IMG/VR virus record: IMGVR_UViG_2778261706_000022
DNA: 39,712 nt
DNA from: a virus
Taxonomy: Duplodnaviria; Heunggongvirae; Uroviricota; Caudoviricetes
Reading direction: 5' to 3' (one strand)
Notes under the pieces: generated by a model
What the model was told of the DNA's origin: nothing
Databases searched by the model: none
What the model saw: only the letters and a program-made list of their open reading frames with translations
In this document: positions 1 through 29,413 of the stretch, piece by piece
Layout of the letters: each line of letters begins with the position of its first letter
Position numbering within the stretch: the stretch's first letter is position 1
Program-made: the position numbers and the translations under genes

Positions 1-72
1 ATGATGGGGCGTTGCCTTTTCGGCTTCTCAGGCGAGAAGCCGTTCTTATTACCGGACAATGAAGGGGTAAAG

Positions 73-702
73 ATGAACACTTCACCGGTGCGAATGGATG
101 ATTTACCGCTTAACCGTTTTCACTGTCGAATTGCTGCGCTCACTTTCGGCGCACACCTGACCGACGGTTATGTTCTCGGCGTCATTGGTTACGCCATTAT
201 TCAACTTACGCCCGCCATGCAACTGACGCCGTTTATGGCGGGAATGATCGGCGGCTCGGCGCACCTTGGTTTGTTTCTTGGCAGCCTGGTTCTTGGGTGG
301 ATCTCCGACCATATTGGTCGGCAAAAAATCTTCACCTTCAGCTTTTTGCTGATTACGCTCGCTTCGTTCTTGCAATTTTTTGCCACCACGCCAGAGCATC
401 TTATTGGACTGCGCATTTTGATCGGCATTGGTCTGGGAGGCGATTACTCAGTAGGTCACACCTTGCTGGCTGAATTTTCCCCGCGCCGCCATCGCGGTGT
501 TTTGCTGGGCGCATTCAGCGTGGTGTGGACCGTAGGCTATGTGTTGGCAAGTATTGCCGGACATCACTTTATTTCCGAAAACCCGGAGGCCTGGCGCTGG
601 CTGCTGGCATCGGCAGCTCTGCCCGCGTTGTTGATTACGTTATTACGCTGGGGAACGCCAGAATCGCCACGCTGGCTACTTATAGCGCGGCGATTTTTTT
701 GA
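73..702 (+). pseudogene. MFS-family transporter gene, 5' portion only, interrupted by prophage insertion
   Basis: Translation has MFS/sugar-porter signatures (GxxxDxxGRQ-like loop, PESPRW motif). ATG at 73 follows a GAAGGGG Shine-Dalgarno. The frame ends in a TGA at 700-702 that coincides with the first prophage terminal repeat, and the protein is far shorter than a 12-TM transporter. Confidence 0.6.
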
Positions 703-764
703 TACCGATTTGCATTTCATTTGATACCGCTGAAAAACGCCGATACGCAACTTATTTGATACTA
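698..764. repeat. Prophage right-end terminal repeats (candidate transposase binding sites)
   Basis: TTTGATACCG at 698-707 and 720-729, TTTGATACTA at 755-764, a further GATAC at 742-746, and a GAAAAACGC motif at 732-740. Element probably begins with TG at 700-701. Confidence 0.45.
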
Positions 765-808
765 AATCGGCGCTTTTCTTTTGAGTTTTAGAATGAGTTT
801 TTAAGCGC

Positions 809-1546
809 TCATTCACTCTCTTTCAAACCAGTTTTAACTGTTTGTGGTTTTGGGTAAGGCTGGACTTTGAATAGCTTTGTGTTGAGGCGTTTTCTGGCCC
901 TCTTGTTCAGAAACCGGATGTAACGAAACTGTCGGAACTTATGAACACTGGCTCTGTCAATATTAGCCCTCAGATGTTCACCTCGTTGTCCGCCTCGTTT
1001 AATGGCATTCCTGCAAATCTCGTGATACCACTCGCCATCAAGTTCATAGAATATTGATTCATGGCTGCCTACATAATCAAAATTGCTTGCCTGATACACG
1101 ACACCAAGACAGCCACAACGCTCATCTGCAAACGACTGAACCCACTGTACCTGCGGATAAAGCTGCCTGATTAGCTTGAGCGCGTAACTGATTGCCCTTG
1201 ATTCGGAGTTTCTCGGCATACAGTCATGCAGCCATAGCCGGTTAAGCTCCATATATTCTCGGTTCTGCGTACCCGTTACGACGCGTGCACCACTGTTTGG
1301 GTTAAGGGCGTAACCCCATTGCATTACGCCAACAAGTTCCCGTTCTGAAAATATGCCCAGATGAAGGTAGGAGTTATTTACGAAACGGTGGCTGTAATGT
1401 TTATTGACGATGACCAGTCTGGCCAGCCAGCAACTTATTGTCTCAACCCGCAACTCACGGGAGCCATAACCAACGATATTGTCGTTATAGCGAATAAGTT
1501 CAGGCGTGCTGATGATTCGGGATGTGACTTGCTTTCTGTTCCCCAC
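809..1546 (-). CDS. mom: Mom-like DNA modification protein
   Basis: Terminal gene of the prophage, overlapped at its 5' end by a Com-like zinc-finger ORF as in Mu com-mom. Start is a GTG at 1546. Identity is by position and the com overlap, not by recalled Mom sequence. Confidence 0.6.
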
Positions 1547-1700
1547 GACAGGATTTCCTTGTGTATGTGGGGTGCTCTGTGGCGCTCGGAGATGTGATTT
1601 GATTGAGGGTTTTACAGCGCGGACATTTTACTTCCAGATAACTGAAACTGGCCCGTGCCAGTAGCTTATTGCAGTGTCGGCACCGTATGTTTCGATACAT
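1500..1700 (-). CDS. com: Com-like zinc-finger translational activator
   Basis: Translation [14 protein letters not shown]...CPRCK carries the CxxC...CxxC zinc finger of Mu Com. ATG at 1700 is preceded by AGGAGG. ORF overlaps the mom start. Confidence 0.7.
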
Positions 1701-1739
1701 GACCGCATAACCTCCTGCTTTGTTGTTGATGCCTTTCTC

Positions 1740-1775
1740 ATGCAATCGATCGACAAAAACGATCGATTCGATTTG
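1740..1775 (-). promoter_or_regulatory. Candidate mom-operon control region with clustered Dam (GATC) sites
   Basis: GATC at 1748-1751 and 1761-1764 inside repeated TCGATCGA motifs, about 50-75 bp upstream of com. Confidence 0.4.
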
Positions 1776-1814
1776 TTTAATTGATACAACAAATAGATTG
1801 AAAAGTCATCAACA

Positions 1815-2279
1815 ATGATTCAGGGAGGTGATTATTTACTTAAAGAAAACGAAGAGTTAGGTGGTGAAAACGATCATAAAATGATCATTTTATTGACTTT
1901 TTATACAGTGAAGGTAGGATCACGCGTATATGTAGTATGTTTCAAATCAACAGGATACTACATAAAAGTGAAACCCAGCATAGCTGGAACTATGCTGGGT
2001 CAATCTGTAAAAACTTGCATCAATGCTTTACTTCGAGCTCGTGGCGTATCCTATGATATTCCCCGGTCTCCTGTAAAGCAGAGATGCATAAAAAGGAGAT
2101 CTTTATCATGGATGAAAGAGCCTGTTTGCCCTGCCTGTAAGACTCCCTTACAGCTCATCTATCGCCGTTCTCGATCTCAAAATGGCAAGACATACAAACC
2201 CAAAAATGCTTCCTGTTTCAGGATGCTGATATGTCCTGCCTGTTCTCCCAGGAGGGAAAATACACAAAACGTGCATTAA
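1815..2279 (+). CDS. Hypothetical protein with C-terminal CPAC...CPAC zinc-ribbon motif
   Basis: Only ORF in an AT-rich 570-bp gap and divergent from com. Two CPAC motifs in the translation. Start uncertain (internal ATG at 1881 possible). Confidence 0.3.
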   Translation: MIQGGDYLLKENEELGGENDHKMIILLTFYTVKVGSRVYVVCFKSTGYYIKVKPSIAGTMLGQSVKTCINALLRARGVSYDIPRSPVKQRCIKRRSLSWMKEPVCPACKTPLQLIYRRSRSQNGKTYKPKNASCFRMLICPACSPRRENTQNVH

Positions 2280-2317: not shown

Positions 2318-2563
2318 TTACATCATAGTACCGTCAGTTCCGGGCTGAACCGGCTCTGGTTGCTCTACGGGTTGAGGATCATTTTCCGTGCTGTTTTCAG
2401 CCGGAGAACGGCCAACCATTCGGGCCAGCACTTCATCAACATATGCGTCGATTTGTGCCTCAAAATCCTTGCGAACCTGCGCCTTCAGCACGCGGTTCAC
2501 TTCTTCAGAATAAAGTGCCTGTTTGACAAGCTCTTCAGTAACCGTGCCTTTAATCTCTGGCAT
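2318..2563 (-). CDS. Hypothetical small acidic protein (81 aa)
   Basis: AAGGAG Shine-Dalgarno 8 nt upstream of the ATG. Helical N-terminus with a Pro/Glu-rich tail. Confidence 0.5.
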   Translation of the reverse strand: MPEIKGTVTEELVKQALYSEEVNRVLKAQVRKDFEAQIDAYVDEVLARMVGRSPAENSTENDPQPVEQPEPVQPGTDGTMM

Positions 2564-2598
2564 GAATATTCTCCTTTTGCAGGTATATTGCCCCGTTA

Positions 2599-2781
2599 TC
2601 AGAGCGGGGTCGGGTCGTTTGGGGATGACGGTGCCTGTGCTGTTTTACTGAGTTTTTCAGCTGCCGCATCATCAATTTTACGGCGAATATAATTTCTGAT
2701 GACCTTATAACCACCGCTCACCAGATATAACGCACTGACCACAGCGCAGAAATAAAGCAGCATTGTATGAACGAATGTCAT
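2599..2781 (-). CDS. Hypothetical small membrane protein (60 aa, one predicted TM helix)
   Basis: Hydrophobic stretch LLYFCAVVSALYLV. Upstream AAAGGTAAGG. Confidence 0.4.
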   Translation of the reverse strand: MTFVHTMLLYFCAVVSALYLVSGGYKVIRNYIRRKIDDAAAEKLSKTAQAPSSPNDPTPL

Positions 2782-2849
2782 ATAACCTTACCTTTGATAT
2801 TGACTACATAATTCGTTATCGGGTAAAAACATCGAAGCGACTGATAACC

Positions 2850-2874
2850 ACTCCTTCGGGAGTATTTTTATTTT
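2850..2874 (+). terminator. Intrinsic terminator-like hairpin (ACTCC-TTCG-GGAGT + T-run)
   Basis: 5-bp stem with TTCG tetraloop at 2850-2863 followed by ATTTTTATTTT. Confidence 0.45.
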
Positions 2875-2893
2875 CCTTTATGGGTTAGGTAGC

Positions 2894-2932
2894 TCCCGCC
2901 AGCCATATCATGACCGGCGGGATTTTTTTATT
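2894..2932 (+). terminator. Intrinsic terminator-like hairpin (TCCCGCC...GGCGGGA + T7)
   Basis: 7-bp GC-rich stem at 2894-2900 / 2916-2922 followed by TTTTTTT. Overlaps the esterase stop codon on the opposite strand. Confidence 0.45.
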
Positions 2933-4967
2933 CTGTTACCGCTTTTTTCACTTCCACCACAATGCTGTCAATCAGCACCGGGTAAGTTGCATTTTTTGTG
3001 ATATCCGTTACGCGGAGTTTGTCCACCGGGAAAGTTCCTACTGGTGACTGCGTCAGGGTAAACGCGGCACCATCCTGACCATCAATAACCGGAATAACCT
3101 GAAGGCTGTTATTTCCTGCAAAACGGAAGGCCAGCGTATGCCATTCATTATCAAATGCACCAAAGGTTCCCAGTTTCTGGTTATTTGTTGCCACTTTTGC
3201 ATTGTGGTACATCACATTCAGGTCTTTTGCGTCTGTCTGGATGTAGAACGATGCCAGCAGATTATTCCCTGCATCCCCTGTCAGGGTGACACCCTGCGGC
3301 AGAGAGGAAACCGGCCAGTAAAGCCCCATGACATACTGGTTTGCCACCAGGTCGCCAGGTACTTTAAAACGACAACTGATTAAACCACCATTTTTCAGCA
3401 GTTCAGCACCAGTACCGGCATCATGATCCAGATACCAAGATGATTTACCTGTTTCCTTGGTCAGTTTCATTGCCTTACCACCTGTGCCTCCTGCATCACT
3501 GATAATTTCAGCTTTACCGCCAGCCGGCTCCCAGCCCTGGGCTTTCAGATTTCCTTCTGACTCACTGACACGATAAGACAGCAGTGTTGTGGTTACTGCT
3601 TCAGTTTCTGAAGGTGACGGCACTGGTGCTTCAGTTTCAGAAGATGGAACATCGGCTTTTACTGTGGTTCGCCCCGCATGAGTCAGAACTGCCGTGGCCA
3701 GACGGTCGGAAATAATCCCACGACGTGCCCATGAACTGAAATGGCTGGCCCGGTCCGCAGATGTCCAGGTGGCGGCACTGTTACGCCACGTTGAGCCGTA
3801 ATAACCAATGGATTCAATATCCGGGTCTTCTGCCGGATTGTTGGTGGGTACATTCGCGTCATTTTCATCTGTCATTAATGGAACGAAATGAATGTTTTTA
3901 TCTGTTTTGTTTTTGTAGCCGCCATAGATTGCCTGGTATGCCGGTTCATTTTTCTGTTTCCAGAAATACGTGGTATCGCCACAAATCCACGGAACGCCAG
4001 CAGCACTGCCACCGGTACACTGTTCCGCCTGTTCAGCCAGGTCTGCGCGGAATTTTTCCACCATCGCCAGAAACAGCGCGGAATGCTCCGTCGGCTTCGC
4101 ATCAATATCAAACTCGCCCTGCATCCACACCACAGCAAGCAGGCGGTTTTTCGGGTTCTTCGCCAGTGCCGCTTTTGTCCGGCTGATTAAGTCCTTATAC
4201 AGCGGCTTATCCACACCCCAGCGGGCTGAGTCCTCTGAAGCACCCGTGCTGTCACTGTACGTGCCGTCAGCACCCGCCGTGAATGCAGAACCACCACGGC
4301 AGCAGGGAACCAGCAGAATCCCCGCATCTGCCGGAATAAACGGCAGCAGTTTTTTGGCAATGTGAAGCCCCTGACCCACGGTGCCATATTGCCCTTTAGC
4401 CACATCCGCTTTCGGGTGATTTTTTCCACTCATATCCTGCACATCATGCAGACAGTGGTCGGCCAGAATGATGTCGTTATACTGACAGGCTTTACCTCCC
4501 GGCGTGACTGTACTGCGACGGGCTAACTGCATAATACGCGGTTCGGGGCGGTCATATGTCTCCGGCAGTGGCAGACCTTCACCGTAAGCCATACCGTTTG
4601 ACTGACCAGCAAGAACCACCACGTAATACCAGGAAGGGGAGCTGGAAGCAGTTTCATTTCCTGACGGACGGGTATGTGTTTCAGCATTATCCCAGTCTGA
4701 CGGTTCAGCAGTACCGGCAACATCAGCACTTAACGGAATGACCGCACCAATACCCGCTCCGGTAATTTCCACACTCGGATCACCGGATACTGGCCTTACC
4801 CACAGGCAATCCCGTGTATTAAAACTGATGAGACAGTCAGCAAATGTCATTCCTCCTTTTGTTTCGGCCGGAGGAAAGGGAGCCTCAAGAAATGCCGCTG
4901 TACCACCGGAAACTTTAACAGTAAAGTTTCCGGGCATTGATGATAGTTGAACCCATTTGGACGTCAT
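2928..4967 (-). CDS. SASA/SGNH-type carbohydrate esterase with C-terminal lectin-like domain (NanS-p-like sialate O-acetylesterase candidate)
   Basis: 679-aa ORF with VLAGQSNGMAYGEG and WMQGEFD motifs typical of the sialate O-acetylesterase (SASA) family, a Pro/Ser/Thr/Glu linker (SETEAPVPSPSETEA), and a C-terminal beta-rich domain. No signal peptide. Confidence 0.6.
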   Translation of the reverse strand: MTSKWVQLSSMPGNFTVKVSGGTAAFLEAPFPPAETKGGMTFADCLISFNTRDCLWVRPVSGDPSVEITGAGIGAVIPLSADVAGTAEPSDWDNAETHTRPSGNETASSSPSWYYVVVLAGQSNGMAYGEGLPLPETYDRPEPRIMQLARRSTVTPGGKACQYNDIILADHCLHDVQDMSGKNHPKADVAKGQYGTVGQGLHIAKKLLPFIPADAGILLVPCCRGGSAFTAGADGTYSDSTGASEDSARWGVDKPLYKDLISRTKAALAKNPKNRLLAVVWMQGEFDIDAKPTEHSALFLAMVEKFRADLAEQAEQCTGGSAAGVPWICGDTTYFWKQKNEPAYQAIYGGYKNKTDKNIHFVPLMTDENDANVPTNNPAEDPDIESIGYYGSTWRNSAATWTSADRASHFSSWARRGIISDRLATAVLTHAGRTTVKADVPSSETEAPVPSPSETEAVTTTLLSYRVSESEGNLKAQGWEPAGGKAEIISDAGGTGGKAMKLTKETGKSSWYLDHDAGTGAELLKNGGLISCRFKVPGDLVANQYVMGLYWPVSSLPQGVTLTGDAGNNLLASFYIQTDAKDLNVMYHNAKVATNNQKLGTFGAFDNEWHTLAFRFAGNNSLQVIPVIDGQDGAAFTLTQSPVGTFPVDKLRVTDITKNATYPVLIDSIVVEVKKAVTE

Positions 4968-5066: not shown

Positions 5067-5627
5067 TTATTTTTCCGAAACGCTCGCAGGATAATAACGA
5101 TAAAGGGTTGAAAGGCCGATATCAAAAATAAGTGCCACCTGTCTTCGACTGACACCCCCGGCCAGTAAACGCCCGACCTGCTCGTATTGTTCCTGCGTGA
5201 GACGACGGGGTCTGCCGCCGGTTCGTCCCCTTTCACGGGCAGCTGCAAGACCAGCCCGTGTCCGTTCGACAATTAATTCACGCTCCATTTCTGCCAGCGC
5301 ACCCATTATGTGAAAAAAGAAGCGCCCCATGGGGGTTGACGTATCAATGTTGTCAGTAAGACTACGAAAATTTATCCCCTGTTGCTGTAATTCATCTGTC
5401 AGCGCAACAAGGTGGCGCATACTGCGCCCCAGCCTGTCCAGTTTCCAGACCATCAGTGTGTCACCGGGTTTTAGTTTCTTCAGTGCCCGCTTCAGTCCCG
5501 GCCGCTGTGTCGTTTTACCACTCATTTTATCTTCAAAAATCTGCTCACATCCTGCACATTCCAGCGCATTTCTTTGTAAACCTGTGTTCTGGTCATTTGT
5601 TGATACGCGTATATAGCCAATCAGCAT
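5067..5627 (-). CDS. gin: Serine DNA invertase (Gin/Pin/Hin/Cin family)
   Basis: Translation MLIGYIRVSTNDQNTGLQRNALECAGCEQIFEDK...FRSLTDNIDTSTPMGRFFFHIMGALAEMERELIVERT closely matches my recollection of Mu Gin. Adjacent to an invertible segment. Confidence 0.9.
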   Translation of the reverse strand: MLIGYIRVSTNDQNTGLQRNALECAGCEQIFEDKMSGKTTQRPGLKRALKKLKPGDTLMVWKLDRLGRSMRHLVALTDELQQQGINFRSLTDNIDTSTPMGRFFFHIMGALAEMERELIVERTRAGLAAARERGRTGGRPRRLTQEQYEQVGRLLAGGVSRRQVALIFDIGLSTLYRYYPASVSEK

Positions 5628-21014: not shown

Positions 21015-21160
21015 TCCGGCAGCATAAGCCGGGAATTTTCAGGGCGGGTTTTGCGGGATTTCAGGAAGTGCTTCCAGGGGAAAAATACAAAGGCGCTTCA
21101 CGCAGATTTTAAAGCCCGTTAAATACAGGTTAGAAAATCACGACACGCGCCTGAAGGGGG

Positions 21161-28954: not shown

Positions 28955-28987
28955 CGGTGAAGGAAAGGCGGCAGGCTTTGCGGAATA

Positions 28988-29413
28988 TCAGAAAAGTGGC
29001 GGTTGTGTTCTTGCCAGATGCAGACGGCGCTGTTCACGTATGACGGTATAAATCTGGGTTTCTGACATCCGGTAATGGCGGCGAAGGGATTCAATTTTCT
29101 CGCCCCGGTCCCAGCGCGAAAATATCTCATTGTTTCGCAGCTCGGCAAAGAGAGATTCCCCGACCGGCAGGTAATAACCCCGTCCGCCCATATAGGCTGC
29201 CTGAGCCGCAGCCACCTTGCGTGCCAGTTTGCCGGCCAGTACCGGCTCAATCCCCTGACGCTGAAGTTCTGCGCCGGTGACTTCAACCAGTTCTGACAGG
29301 GTCCGCGGCCAGTTCTTTTTGAGAACATCATCAGGGATGTCATCAAGGCGGTCGATAAGGGCGTGCAGTTGCTCACTGTCACCACCAAACATGCTCATCT
29401 GAGTTTCTGCCAT
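28988..29413 (-). CDS. mor: Mor/C-family transcriptional activator
   Basis: 141-aa protein with C-terminal helix-turn-helix (MSETQIYTVIREQRRL), directly downstream of GemA. Only one Mor/C homologue is present. Confidence 0.65.
   Translation of the reverse strand: MAETQMSMFGGDSEQLHALIDRLDDIPDDVLKKNWPRTLSELVEVTGAELQRQGIEPVLAGKLARKVAAAQAAYMGGRGYYLPVGESLFAELRNNEIFSRWDRGEKIESLRRHYRMSETQIYTVIREQRRLHLARTQPPLF

Follow-up and report, generated by a model that had tools for sequence, protein, structure and literature searches.

A com-mom anti-restriction operon in a Mu-like Escherichia coli prophage, with a proposed Com-opened mom hairpin and Dam/OxyR-controlled GATC pair

The anti-restriction operon described here, com-mom, lies at the right end of a transposable E. 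coli prophage that is Mu-like and of the Sp18 type. It is located in the window, i.e., the whole stretch of 39,712 nucleotides that was analyzed. Coordinates are given on the plus strand, while com and mom are read on the minus strand. The reading that we favor joins two layers of control: Com opens a hairpin that blocks mom, and a pair of GATC sites upstream of com is controlled by Dam and OxyR. Taken as a whole, including the identity of the operon, this reading is assigned a probability of roughly 0.8. The module is not novel; it is an ordinary com-mom, annotated already, with a mechanism inherited from Mu.

The com and mom genes and their prophage setting

The features that define the operon and its borders are as follows.

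681..808, no strand: right end of the prophage (attR side), which sits in a host MFS transporter gene
809..1546, minus strand: mom, 245 aa, GTG start at 1546; predicted Mom-family DNA adenine-modifying enzyme
1500..1700, minus strand: com, 66 aa, ATG at 1700; predicted CCCC zinc-ribbon translational activator
1711..1716, minus strand: com Shine-Dalgarno (SD) sequence AGGAGG, 10 nt before the ATG, read directly
1972..2001, minus strand: intrinsic terminator, a 13-pair stem followed by a T-rich tail, which ends the upstream late/moron transcript

The initial annotation described the 245-aa protein as Mom-like, and similarity to the Mom family was indeed found: it matches Pfam PF25680 [E 4e-77, profile positions 1-202 of 202 covered], Mu Mom in a BLASTP comparison [79% identity over 233 aa, E 1e-140], and PDB 8BV8, "Methylcarbamoylase mom" [E 4.5e-124]. 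RefSeq names the product "protein mom" or "Mom family adenine methylcarbamoylation protein". All nine published active-site or essential residues [W48, H58, Y59, R111, S124, D149, R151, Y159, and W181 in the Mu 241-aa numbering; PMC13219725] are identical and correspond to W40, H50, Y51, R103, S116, D141, R143, Y151, and W173 in the window. The part of the GNAT fold that holds an HTH-like insertion required for activity (Mu residues ~175-209) aligns without gaps and is well conserved, and the protein has 12 C-terminal residues more than Mu Mom. The GTG at 1546, the homologue of the GUG start in Mu, is the first possible start in the mom ORF. No in-frame Met follows before residue 75, and a start at this position would delete the catalytic His50 and Tyr51; hence, the GTG is the only workable mom start. 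Mu Mom moves glycine from Gly-tRNA(Gly) onto adenine N6, where it rearranges to give 6-NcmdA, and the acetamido-adenine chemistry previously attached to this locus is therefore outdated (PMC13219725). Mom would modify the adenine N6 of phage DNA late in lytic growth, resulting in protection from host restriction.

Com matches PF10122 [Zn_ribbon_Com; E 3.2e-12] and the PHROG "gpCom control of modification" [7.8e-13]. Its zinc-binding cysteines are Cys7, Cys10, Cys26, and Cys29, corresponding to C6, C9, C26, and C29 in Mu Com, while its C-terminal tail differs from that of Mu Com. Aligning the locus with Mu com-mom had been proposed as a check, and both proteins align, Mom with 79% and Com with 47% identity. 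The zinc-finger ORF was also said to overlap the start of mom, and the overlap amounts to 47 nt (1500-1546), compared to 50 nt in Mu, counted to its GTG. A TTG start at 1745 (ORF 1745..1500) was ruled out in favor of the ATG at 1700 on the basis of the Mu alignment, the position of the SD sequence, and RefSeq, where WP_001310452.1 has the coordinates of com, 1700..1500. The AGGAGG is kept in all relatives with the compact promoter layout discussed below. In NCBIfam, Com and Mom were matched only below curated cut-offs, by unrelated zinc-finger and rRNA-transferase models, and the divergent ORF had no match; an Rfam search of 700-2700 matched no family. Both the family models and the identity to Mu agree with the earlier reading of a Mu-type com-mom module with upstream GATCs and a GTG-initiated mom.

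RefSeq annotates the module in 233 genomes of E. coli. Many O157:H7 and STEC chromosomes, in which Com and Mom are annotated, carry the 851-bp region with 100% identity, and at the sequence level there is no difference from the Sp18-type prophages found in E. coli O157:H7 and in other STEC. SP18 is said to encode homologues of Mom plus its regulators (PMC3299994). The prophage boundary was mapped via an annotated Mu-like insert in LC727895, and the host ORF at 1..702 is an MFS/Sugar_tr protein according to a family-model match. In other genomes, the prophage is present at different sites, and the collection contains no match to the chromosomal site at which this copy is inserted. The same Sp18-type phage as in the window also occurs inserted into Stx phages. 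At the other border, the terminator at 1972..2001 stops the upstream late/moron transcript; com-mom therefore needs its own promoter.

Proposed translational control of mom by Com

The control of mom translation by Com is the well-supported part of the proposed regulation. Three elements on the mRNA are involved.

1572..1585, minus strand: candidate hairpin for Com binding, GCGC-CACAGA-GCAC, within the com ORF; its hexaloop carries CC-ACA-GAG (1582..1575)
1541..1572, minus strand: translation-inhibition hairpin (TIS), in which CCCCAC (1572..1567) and GUGGGG (1546..1541) form a stem that hides the mom GUG
1559..1556, minus strand: mom SD sequence AGGA, in the inner stem/loop of the TIS hairpin

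Using SELEX and SHAPE, the Com target was defined as CC(N)2-3GAG in a hexaloop beside the TIS (PMC6483171). The CC(N)3GAG hexaloop in the window, directly 5′ of the GUG-containing hairpin, fits this definition, and the Com hairpin has the same position as AUGC-CUGCGA-GCAU in Mu. Among seven distinct sequences, compensatory changes were detected in three of the four stem pairs, and 96.8% of the cells in the stem are paired vs 24-54% in slid controls. The second stem pair is a C.A mismatch in the lineage of the window, which counts against the model. With respect to the TIS, RNA folding gives a probability of 0.99-1.0 that the mom start codon is paired. Either the start codon or the SD sequence is sequestered in each of the 11 loci that were folded, with the start codon paired at a probability of ~1.0 in seven of these, including the window and Mu, and the CCCAC/GUGGG stem is invariant in seven sequences.

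These features suggest how the switch would operate. The mom GUG and SD sequence would be locked in the CCCCAC...GUGGGG hairpin, while Com would be translated first from the mRNA common to com and mom. Com would then bind the neighboring CC-ACA-GAG hexaloop hairpin and open the TIS structure, such that Mom would be made only once Com has accumulated. The GTG start of mom had been taken as consistent with tight translational control, and the predicted Com RNA target together with the start-codon hairpin is in keeping with this suggestion.

The GATC pair and the com-mom promoter

Upstream of com, the following features are considered, together with a gene for a late activator elsewhere in the window.

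1744..1768, no strand: perfect 9-bp inverted repeat AATCGATCG-N7-CGATCGATT, which carries both Dam sites
1776..1787, minus strand: degenerate counterpart of Mu GATC I, GTATC (1787..1783), then ATCAATTAAA (1785..1776)
1734..1739, minus strand: candidate weak -10 element GAGAAA, placed only by its position, 12 nt downstream of the G in the proximal GATC
28988..29413, minus strand: Mor/C-family late activator [Pfam Mor, 2.8e-32; 39% identity to Mu C]

The two GATCs are positioned at 1748-1751 and 1761-1764, i.e., exactly 13 bp apart, and constitute the sole 13-bp pair among the 130 GATCs of the window, in which GATC is slightly under-represented (154 expected). While the spacing given in the initial annotation is correct, its two TCGATCGA repeats are not: the exact TCGATCGA occurs only once, at 1746-1753, and the second copy is ACGATCGA on the plus strand, a 7/8 match. 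The inverted repeat is the only one of the 9/7/9 type in the window. There are five GATC pairs no more than 13 bp apart in the 39.7 kb, and a close pair alone is thus not rare; the significance of this pair comes from its conservation amid diverged flanks, not from closeness. The AATCGATCG..GATCGATT block is invariant in seven aligned phages representing two lineages [the window, E. coli M1, S792, Mu, D108, SfMu, and YpM3], the surroundings of which have diverged, and the pair with its immediate flanks is homologous to Mu GATC II/III. The earlier statement that the Mu logic is kept here "with different sequence" is consequently mistaken for this element. The degenerate GATC I counterpart lies within an invariant block of the E. 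coli compact-class sequences and within the best OxyR-consensus matches; its ATCAATTAAA constitutes the final codons and stop of gin in Mu.

For scoring of full OxyR tetramer sites, we used a consensus that was reportedly derived by Toledano in 1994. The top four of the 39,676 positions scored in the window are all at 1749-1816, and the best scores of 13-14/20 are comparable to 13/20 for Mu, where the best match spans GATC I-III, although this consensus inherently rewards ATCGAT-type repeats. For 10 of the 13 enterobacterial-type loci, the highest or second-highest OxyR score of the whole locus falls upstream of com. Moreover, ATCG-N7-CGAT agrees at six of eight positions with the OxyR-dimer half site ATAG-N7-CTAT, a form that PMC2909390 gives with what looks like a typo. 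In the P22 gtr system, GATC pairs with 13-bp spacing are situated within single OxyR half sites, one such pair being at -46/-33 (PMC2909390), and the Mu region that holds the same pair and flanks as the window is under experimentally established OxyR control (PMC3378877, PMC2909390). These similarities point to a Dam/OxyR dependence of com-mom. The two GATCs would together make up a single half site of the OxyR-dimer type, and a weaker one would lie 22 bp upstream. When unmethylated, the site would bind reduced OxyR, resulting in repression, which Dam methylation would relieve.

Dam methylation of the pair might instead work through SeqA or have a direct effect on the strength of the promoter. 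In this scenario, the shift between full methylation in the prophage and hemimethylation during replicative transposition would alter the binding of RNA polymerase or an activator, as in the case of the IS10 transposase promoter. The position of the pair 43 nt from the com ATG, probably inside the -35/spacer, and the modest OxyR match (13-14/20) are compatible with such a mechanism, and two GATCs 13 bp apart suit SeqA binding. We nevertheless consider it unlikely, since an OxyR half site has exactly this spacing, most enterobacterial loci have their peak of OxyR-like scores at this place, and the same pair and flanks belong to the region of Mu that OxyR is established to control (PMC3378877, PMC2909390).

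Other elements near the pair were evaluated and rejected. Three further GATCs, at 1872, 1883, and 1918, make this region the densest 180-bp GATC cluster of the window; as part of the conserved control region they were discarded because the sequence around them is replaced in M1/CI5-type relatives. The M1 and CI5 variants of E. coli also do not conserve a 14-nt inverted repeat around the pair (1815..1802, 1736..1723). The palindrome was also flagged by a program as an intrinsic terminator on the plus strand; however, no plus-strand gene ends there, and the palindrome is conserved as DNA in Mu beside a different flank.

Returning to regulation by Dam and OxyR, the model of transcriptional control is less certain than that of translation. 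The pair is 43 nt from the com ATG compared to 70 nt in Mu; shifted by 27 bp toward com, it is likely to overlap the promoter. The C box TTAT-N6-ATAA over a poor -35, the 19-bp spacer with a T6 run, and the TAAGAT -10 of Mu have no counterpart in the window; the positions of these elements we take to be those indicated by the Mu sequence and the work of Hattman and Kahmann. Given that only two of the three Mu GATCs are present, that the C site and Pmom elements are missing, and that the distance is 43 nt, the transcriptional logic of Mu appears to be kept in part, with a different geometry. Hence, the idea that the same logic is kept applies to the translational switch and the GATC pair but not to the C box, the Pmom elements, and GATC I.

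The compact layout recurs in ~31 other loci, about half of the surveyed Mom loci. In its divergent representatives, a near-consensus -10 hexamer (TATACT, TATAGT, or TAGATT) is found 11-13 nt after the proximal GATC, while GAGAAA in the window is a very poor -10 candidate, which counts against the model. Other placements that fit the conservation are ATGACT-N17-TATCAA upstream of the pair and TTGTCG-N19-CATCAA. A sigma-70 consensus scan of 1400-2700 gave no promoter on the com strand within 1700-1970, and sigma-70 scans of the relatives L061 and L063 gave none; for this reason, we infer the promoter position indirectly. With its GATCs at roughly -38 and -25, the pair would lie over the -35/spacer of a promoter that is weak and lacks a -35, and repression would be due to direct occlusion, as at the P22 gtr OxyR(BC) site.

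It is the phage C homologue that presumably fires this promoter, and the Mor/C-family protein is the candidate trans-activator. The late-promoter box TCCCGCAAARCCYGCC-N16-TAnGCT, which resembles Mu Plys, precedes lys and I. Upstream of com, no match to this box was detected even with three mismatches allowed, which leaves the C dependence unsupported. A 14-mer search allowing up to two mismatches uncovered no motif that the com upstream region shares with other parts of the window, and a 9-mer comparison of the com upstream region with those of lys and I showed nothing in common. One could then ask whether the palindrome is itself the binding site for the C homologue, replacing the Mu-type C box in the compact lineage. 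It is located where an activator site overlapping the -35 would be, the Mu C box, T6 run, and TAAGAT are missing, and the homologue is just 39% identical to Mu C. This is very improbable considering that Mu-class phages keep the palindrome beside a separate, mapped C site, that the lys and I promoters have another box without a counterpart at com, and that the palindrome has no second copy in the window.

The pair could, finally, be a relic or a chance occurrence, leaving mom under late transcription and Com only, a view to which the five close GATC pairs of the window, the decay of one of Mu's three sites, and the several Mom loci without any GATC cluster would lend some weight. We also consider this very improbable, because neither the pair nor its 9-bp arms vary, whereas the 15 nt directly downstream do and contain an indel, because the 13-bp spacing persists in sequences as divergent as L010 and L061-L063, and because the loci without a cluster are mostly from non-enterobacterial hosts or lack com. 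Overall, the 13-bp spacing is present in ~60 of the ~72 com-containing Mom loci and is missing from the non-enterobacterial loci of Neptunomonas, Parathalassolituus, Ca. Endobugula, and a deltaproteobacterial MAG.

Two promoter layouts and comparison with known systems

The promoters of Mom loci have either the Mu-type or the compact layout. What the two layouts share is a 13-bp GATC pair with the geometry of an OxyR half site, along with the Com and start-codon hairpins, and these mark a minimal conserved control unit. This unit can drive another effector: in E. coli DETEC-S792, the exact regulatory cassette of the window is present before a C-5 cytosine methylase. Comparing the two layouts offers clear predictions for studies of Mom toxicity or anti-restriction in STEC prophages. 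The single pair over the core promoter, without a C box and approximately three helical turns nearer the -10 than in Mu, raises a further, rather improbable idea, namely that the compact layout could, like P22 gtr or agn43, be switched on and off heritably by Dam and OxyR, which would make host DNA modification phase-variable. If true, a subpopulation of lysogens might express the effector (Mom, or the C-5 methylase that takes its place at the same junction in DETEC-S792) from the prophage.

As in the window, com overlaps mom and mom has a GUG start in Mu, as well as in D108, SfMu, and the Yersinia vB_YpM Mu-like phages. Mu and the window have in common the Com hexaloop hairpin CC-N3-GAG and the CCCAC/GUGGG start-codon hairpin, and the 13-bp spacing and flanks of Mu GATC II/III are identical in the window. 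Mu, however, has three GATCs, spaced by 18 and 13 bp, which immediately precede its C site, whereas the window has two, with GTATC in place of GATC I. Moreover, gin adjoins the module in Mu, while a 3.3-kb moron block and the divergent ORF intervene in the window.

In the gtr and agn43 switches, GATC pairs with 13-bp spacing are placed in a single OxyR-dimer half site, and methylation blocks OxyR (PMC2909390). The likeness of P22/Salmonella gtr and E. coli agn43 to the window is one of geometry only; as suggested for the pair here, gtr GATC3/4 (-46/-33) overlap the promoter. The gtr system, with its three half sites and four GATCs, is phase-variable, whereas the window has one strong and one weak half site. 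Nothing in the window points to phase variation. A com gene before a DNA-modification gene at the Mu right end is also known from FluMu HI1523, Pnm1 NMA1821, Hia5, and phage B3 ORF48 (PMC3299994). In these cassettes, the effector is a methyltransferase, while the window carries a genuine Mom enzyme.

Com and Mom and the prophage that carries them

The window holds a Mu-like prophage in reverse reading direction, with all late genes on the minus strand. The initial annotation had placed a com-mom module near one end, and profile and identity searches bear this out. Mom matches Pfam Mom over the entire profile (4e-77) and the Mu Mom crystal structure 8BV8 (4.5e-124), and is 79% identical to Mu Mom. 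For Com, the matches are to Pfam Zn_ribbon_Com (3.2e-12) and PHROG "gpCom control of modification"; it shares 47% identity with Mu Com and has all four zinc cysteines. The two genes overlap by 47 nt.

Features of the window (coordinates, strand, description)
1-702, plus: 5′ part of a host MFS transporter gene
~681: phage right end, mapped by reference to an annotated copy of this phage inside an Stx phage
1546..809, minus: mom, 245 aa, last phage gene, GTG start
1572..1567 (CCCCAC) pairing with 1546..1541 (GUGGGG), minus: start-codon hairpin, directly after the Com hairpin
1585..1572, minus: putative Com-binding hairpin GCGC-CACAGA-GCAC, carrying CC-ACA-GAG
1700..1500, minus: com, 66 aa, ATG start, AGGAGG 10 nt upstream
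1815-2279, especially 2112-2279, plus: ORF divergent from com; in RefSeq a single 154-aa hypothetical protein
2001..1972, minus: intrinsic terminator closing the upstream transcript
2318-4967, minus: 679-aa protein (SASA sialate-O-acetylesterase-type domain and DUF6645), then DUF1378 and DUF826
21043-21058, minus: TCCCGCAAARCCYGCC box before the protease/scaffold (I-like) gene
28970-28985, minus: TCCCGCAAARCCYGCC box before the lysozyme gene

The longer Com ORF implied by the original coordinates is open from a TTG at 1745, but the ATG at 1700 agrees with both Mu Com and RefSeq. All nine Mom residues found essential or strongly activity-affecting in a 2026 mechanistic study (W48, H58, Y59, R111, S124, D149, R151, Y159 and W181; PMC13219725) are conserved. 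The same study shows that Mom has a GNAT fold and moves glycine from Gly-tRNA(Gly) onto adenine N6, after which the product rearranges to 6-NcmdA (PMC13219725). Hence, the earlier wording of an acyltransferase-like protein producing acetamido-adenine was right in kind but is outdated by this chemistry.

The module itself is of low novelty, because annotations and the literature already cover it: SP18 is among the Mu-like phages in which homologues of Mom and of its regulators occupy the equivalent position (PMC3299994), and RefSeq names such copies "Com family ...", "protein mom" or "Mom family adenine methylcarbamoylation protein". Among 5,426 complete E. coli genomes, 233 contain region 1480-2330 (851 bp); in 134 records, many from O157:H7 or other STEC, the identity is 99% or higher.

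The prophage interrupts the MFS transporter gene. Its chromosomal site differs in each genome sampled and the window's junction is matched in no genome of the E. coli collection, as expected of a transposable phage. In other genomes of that collection (matches H49-H56) the phage end abuts comR, another prophage's tail gene, an epimerase gene, a fimbrial gene, dprA or psiE, and the same phage also lies within Stx1a and Stx2c phages. This variety of insertion sites suggests a transposable phage that is currently mobile in STEC. While gin abuts com in Mu, here gin (5067..5627) and com are separated by the block at 2318-4967, which is of a kind typical for lambdoid and Stx prophages and looks like what we take to be a NanS-p-like moron cluster gained by the Mu-like phage.

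The product of the ORF divergent from com is covered by phrog_26524 over aa 1-104. Several close relatives (L004, L032, L033 and L035) carry frameshifted or truncated versions of this ORF, and in L061, a distant relative, it corresponds to two ORFs. The second of these encodes a small CxxC-x30-CxxC zinc-ribbon protein (~55-61 aa; 43% identity between window and L061) that matched no Pfam or NCBIfam family.

Translational control of mom

In Mu, Com targets a short hexaloop hairpin with CC(N)2-3GAG, which adjoins a translation-inhibition structure with the mom GUG within its stem (PMC6483171). The window has the same arrangement of a Com hairpin and a GUG-containing start-codon hairpin. The CCCCAC/GUGGGG pairing encloses an inner stem and loop that contain the mom SD AGGA, and RNA folding gives the start codon a pairing probability of 0.99-1.0. 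The earlier reading of the GTG start as consistent with tight control is therefore correct and stronger than stated: the GTG is homologous to the Mu GUG and part of the regulatory stem. No earlier start is possible in the ORF, and beginning at the next in-frame Met would delete essential residues.

Folding of com-mom loci from different hosts sequesters the start codon or SD in 11 of 11, seven of which start with GUG. In an alignment of seven distinct sequences the CCCAC/GUGGG stem is invariant, and three of the four Com hairpin pairs are changed on both sides (AUGC/GCAU in the Mu type, GCAC/GUGC in Edwardsiella; the window lineage has GCGC/GCAC, including one C.A mismatch). Paired cells amount to 96.8%, versus 24-54% with partners slid. 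These data argue that translational control is conserved in detail with Mu, with presumed dependence on Com.

The counterpart of window 1500-1830 in E. coli DETEC-S792 (L004; NZ_CP116067.1, 1463-2790) has the same GATC pair, com, both hairpins and first codons GTG GGG AAC. Downstream of com it carries a 350-aa C-5 cytosine DNA methylase (PF00145, 1.6e-42) in place of mom; the replacement begins precisely where the regulatory cassette ends on its 3′ side. Adenine methylases under Com control are known (PMC3299994). Several surveyed Mom genes are without any com. Mom homologues with 62-71% identity (L019-L022 and L026; Yersinia, Serratia and one record under the title Sphingomonas sp.) have neither a com-like zinc-ribbon ORF nor a GATC cluster upstream. 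Thus, Mom can occur without the Com switch.

The GATC pair as a candidate OxyR site

The two upstream GATC sites proposed initially lie at 1748 and 1761, with a spacing of exactly 13 bp. They had been placed in TCGATCGA repeats; this exact 8-mer is present once, and the second copy matches at only 7/8. The pair is better described by a perfect inverted repeat, AATCGATCG-N7-CGATCGATT (1744-1768), the sole one of such form in the window. The block AATCGATCG-N-GATCGATT is invariant across the window, two E. coli variants, Mu, D108, SfMu and one Yersinia Mu-like phage, and the window GATCs are therefore homologous to Mu GATC II and III, likewise spaced by 13 bp. The pair is flanked by a 14-nt inverted repeat, TTGTTGATGaCTTT / AAAGgCATCAACAA (1802-1815 and 1723-1736; one mismatch), which extends to where the divergent ORF starts; the window and S792 lineages carry this repeat, and the M1 and CI5 variants of E. 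coli do not.

In its geometry, ATCG-N7-CGAT corresponds to a single OxyR-dimer half site (ATAG-N7-CTAT). When a 37-bp OxyR consensus was run across 39,676 positions of the window, the top four scores all fell at 1749-1816, although the scores are moderate (13-14/20) and the consensus favours ATCGAT-like repeats. The single best match in the Mu locus spans GATC I-III. Among enterobacterial-type loci, the best or second-best match over the entire locus is upstream of com in 10 of 13; this was not seen in the non-enteric loci. Collectively, these observations support the GATC pair as a putative OxyR site, short of proof.

Probable promoter layout compared with Mu and P22

The terminator at 2001..1972 implies that com-mom must have its own promoter, and no consensus sigma-70 promoter was found on the com strand between 1700 and 1970. 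The one Mor/C-family gene in the phage, just before the lysozyme gene, encodes a protein with 39% identity to Mu C. A box common to the regions upstream of lys and I, TCCCGCAAARCCYGCC-N16-TAnGCT with TAnGCT as a -10-like hexamer, is similar to Mu Plys, and the TCCCGCAAARCCYGCC motif is enriched (10 matches observed against 3.1 expected, with at most three mismatches). These sites are probably the C-dependent late promoters of the phage. Nothing similar lies upstream of com, and C dependence of the com promoter is therefore an assumption carried from Mu. More generally, we infer dependence on Dam, OxyR, C and Com only from homology and comparative conservation.

A survey covering 21 loci of species genomes plus 80 IMG/VR loci revealed two common layouts: a Mu type with GATCs near -109, -91 and -78 from the com ATG (~29 loci) and a compact type, including the window, with GATCs at -64 and -51 (~31 loci). 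The 13-bp pair is absent from the surveyed Neptunomonas, Parathalassolituus, Ca. Endobugula and deltaproteobacterial MAG loci. Divergent compact-type members have a near-consensus -10 (TATACT, TATAGT or TAGATT) 11-13 nt beyond the proximal GATC and lack a recognisable -35; at the matching position the window has only GAGAAA. By this placement, the GATC pair probably lies inside the core promoter, at roughly -38 and -25.

In Mu, GATC I is within the last gin codons. The window has GTATC at the same place, followed by ATCAATTAAA, the sequence that ends gin in Mu. From GATC III to the com ATG, Mu has 70 nt containing the C-binding dyad TTAT-N6-ATAA, a poor -35, a T6 run and TAAGAT; the corresponding distance in the window is 43 nt, with none of these elements. 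At the predicted promoter position, the pair would probably be about three helical turns nearer the -10 than in Mu. The suggestion that the logic of Mu is kept with different sequence consequently needs revision: the translational logic and the core Dam/OxyR-type element rest on the same sequence elements as in Mu, and it is the surrounding promoter architecture that is different and more compact. A 13-bp GATC pair with half-site geometry is an arrangement that the window shares with P22 gtr, where experiments placed two GATCs 13 bp apart inside a single OxyR half site, with the proximal pair at -46/-33 and OxyR binding abolished by methylation (PMC2909390).
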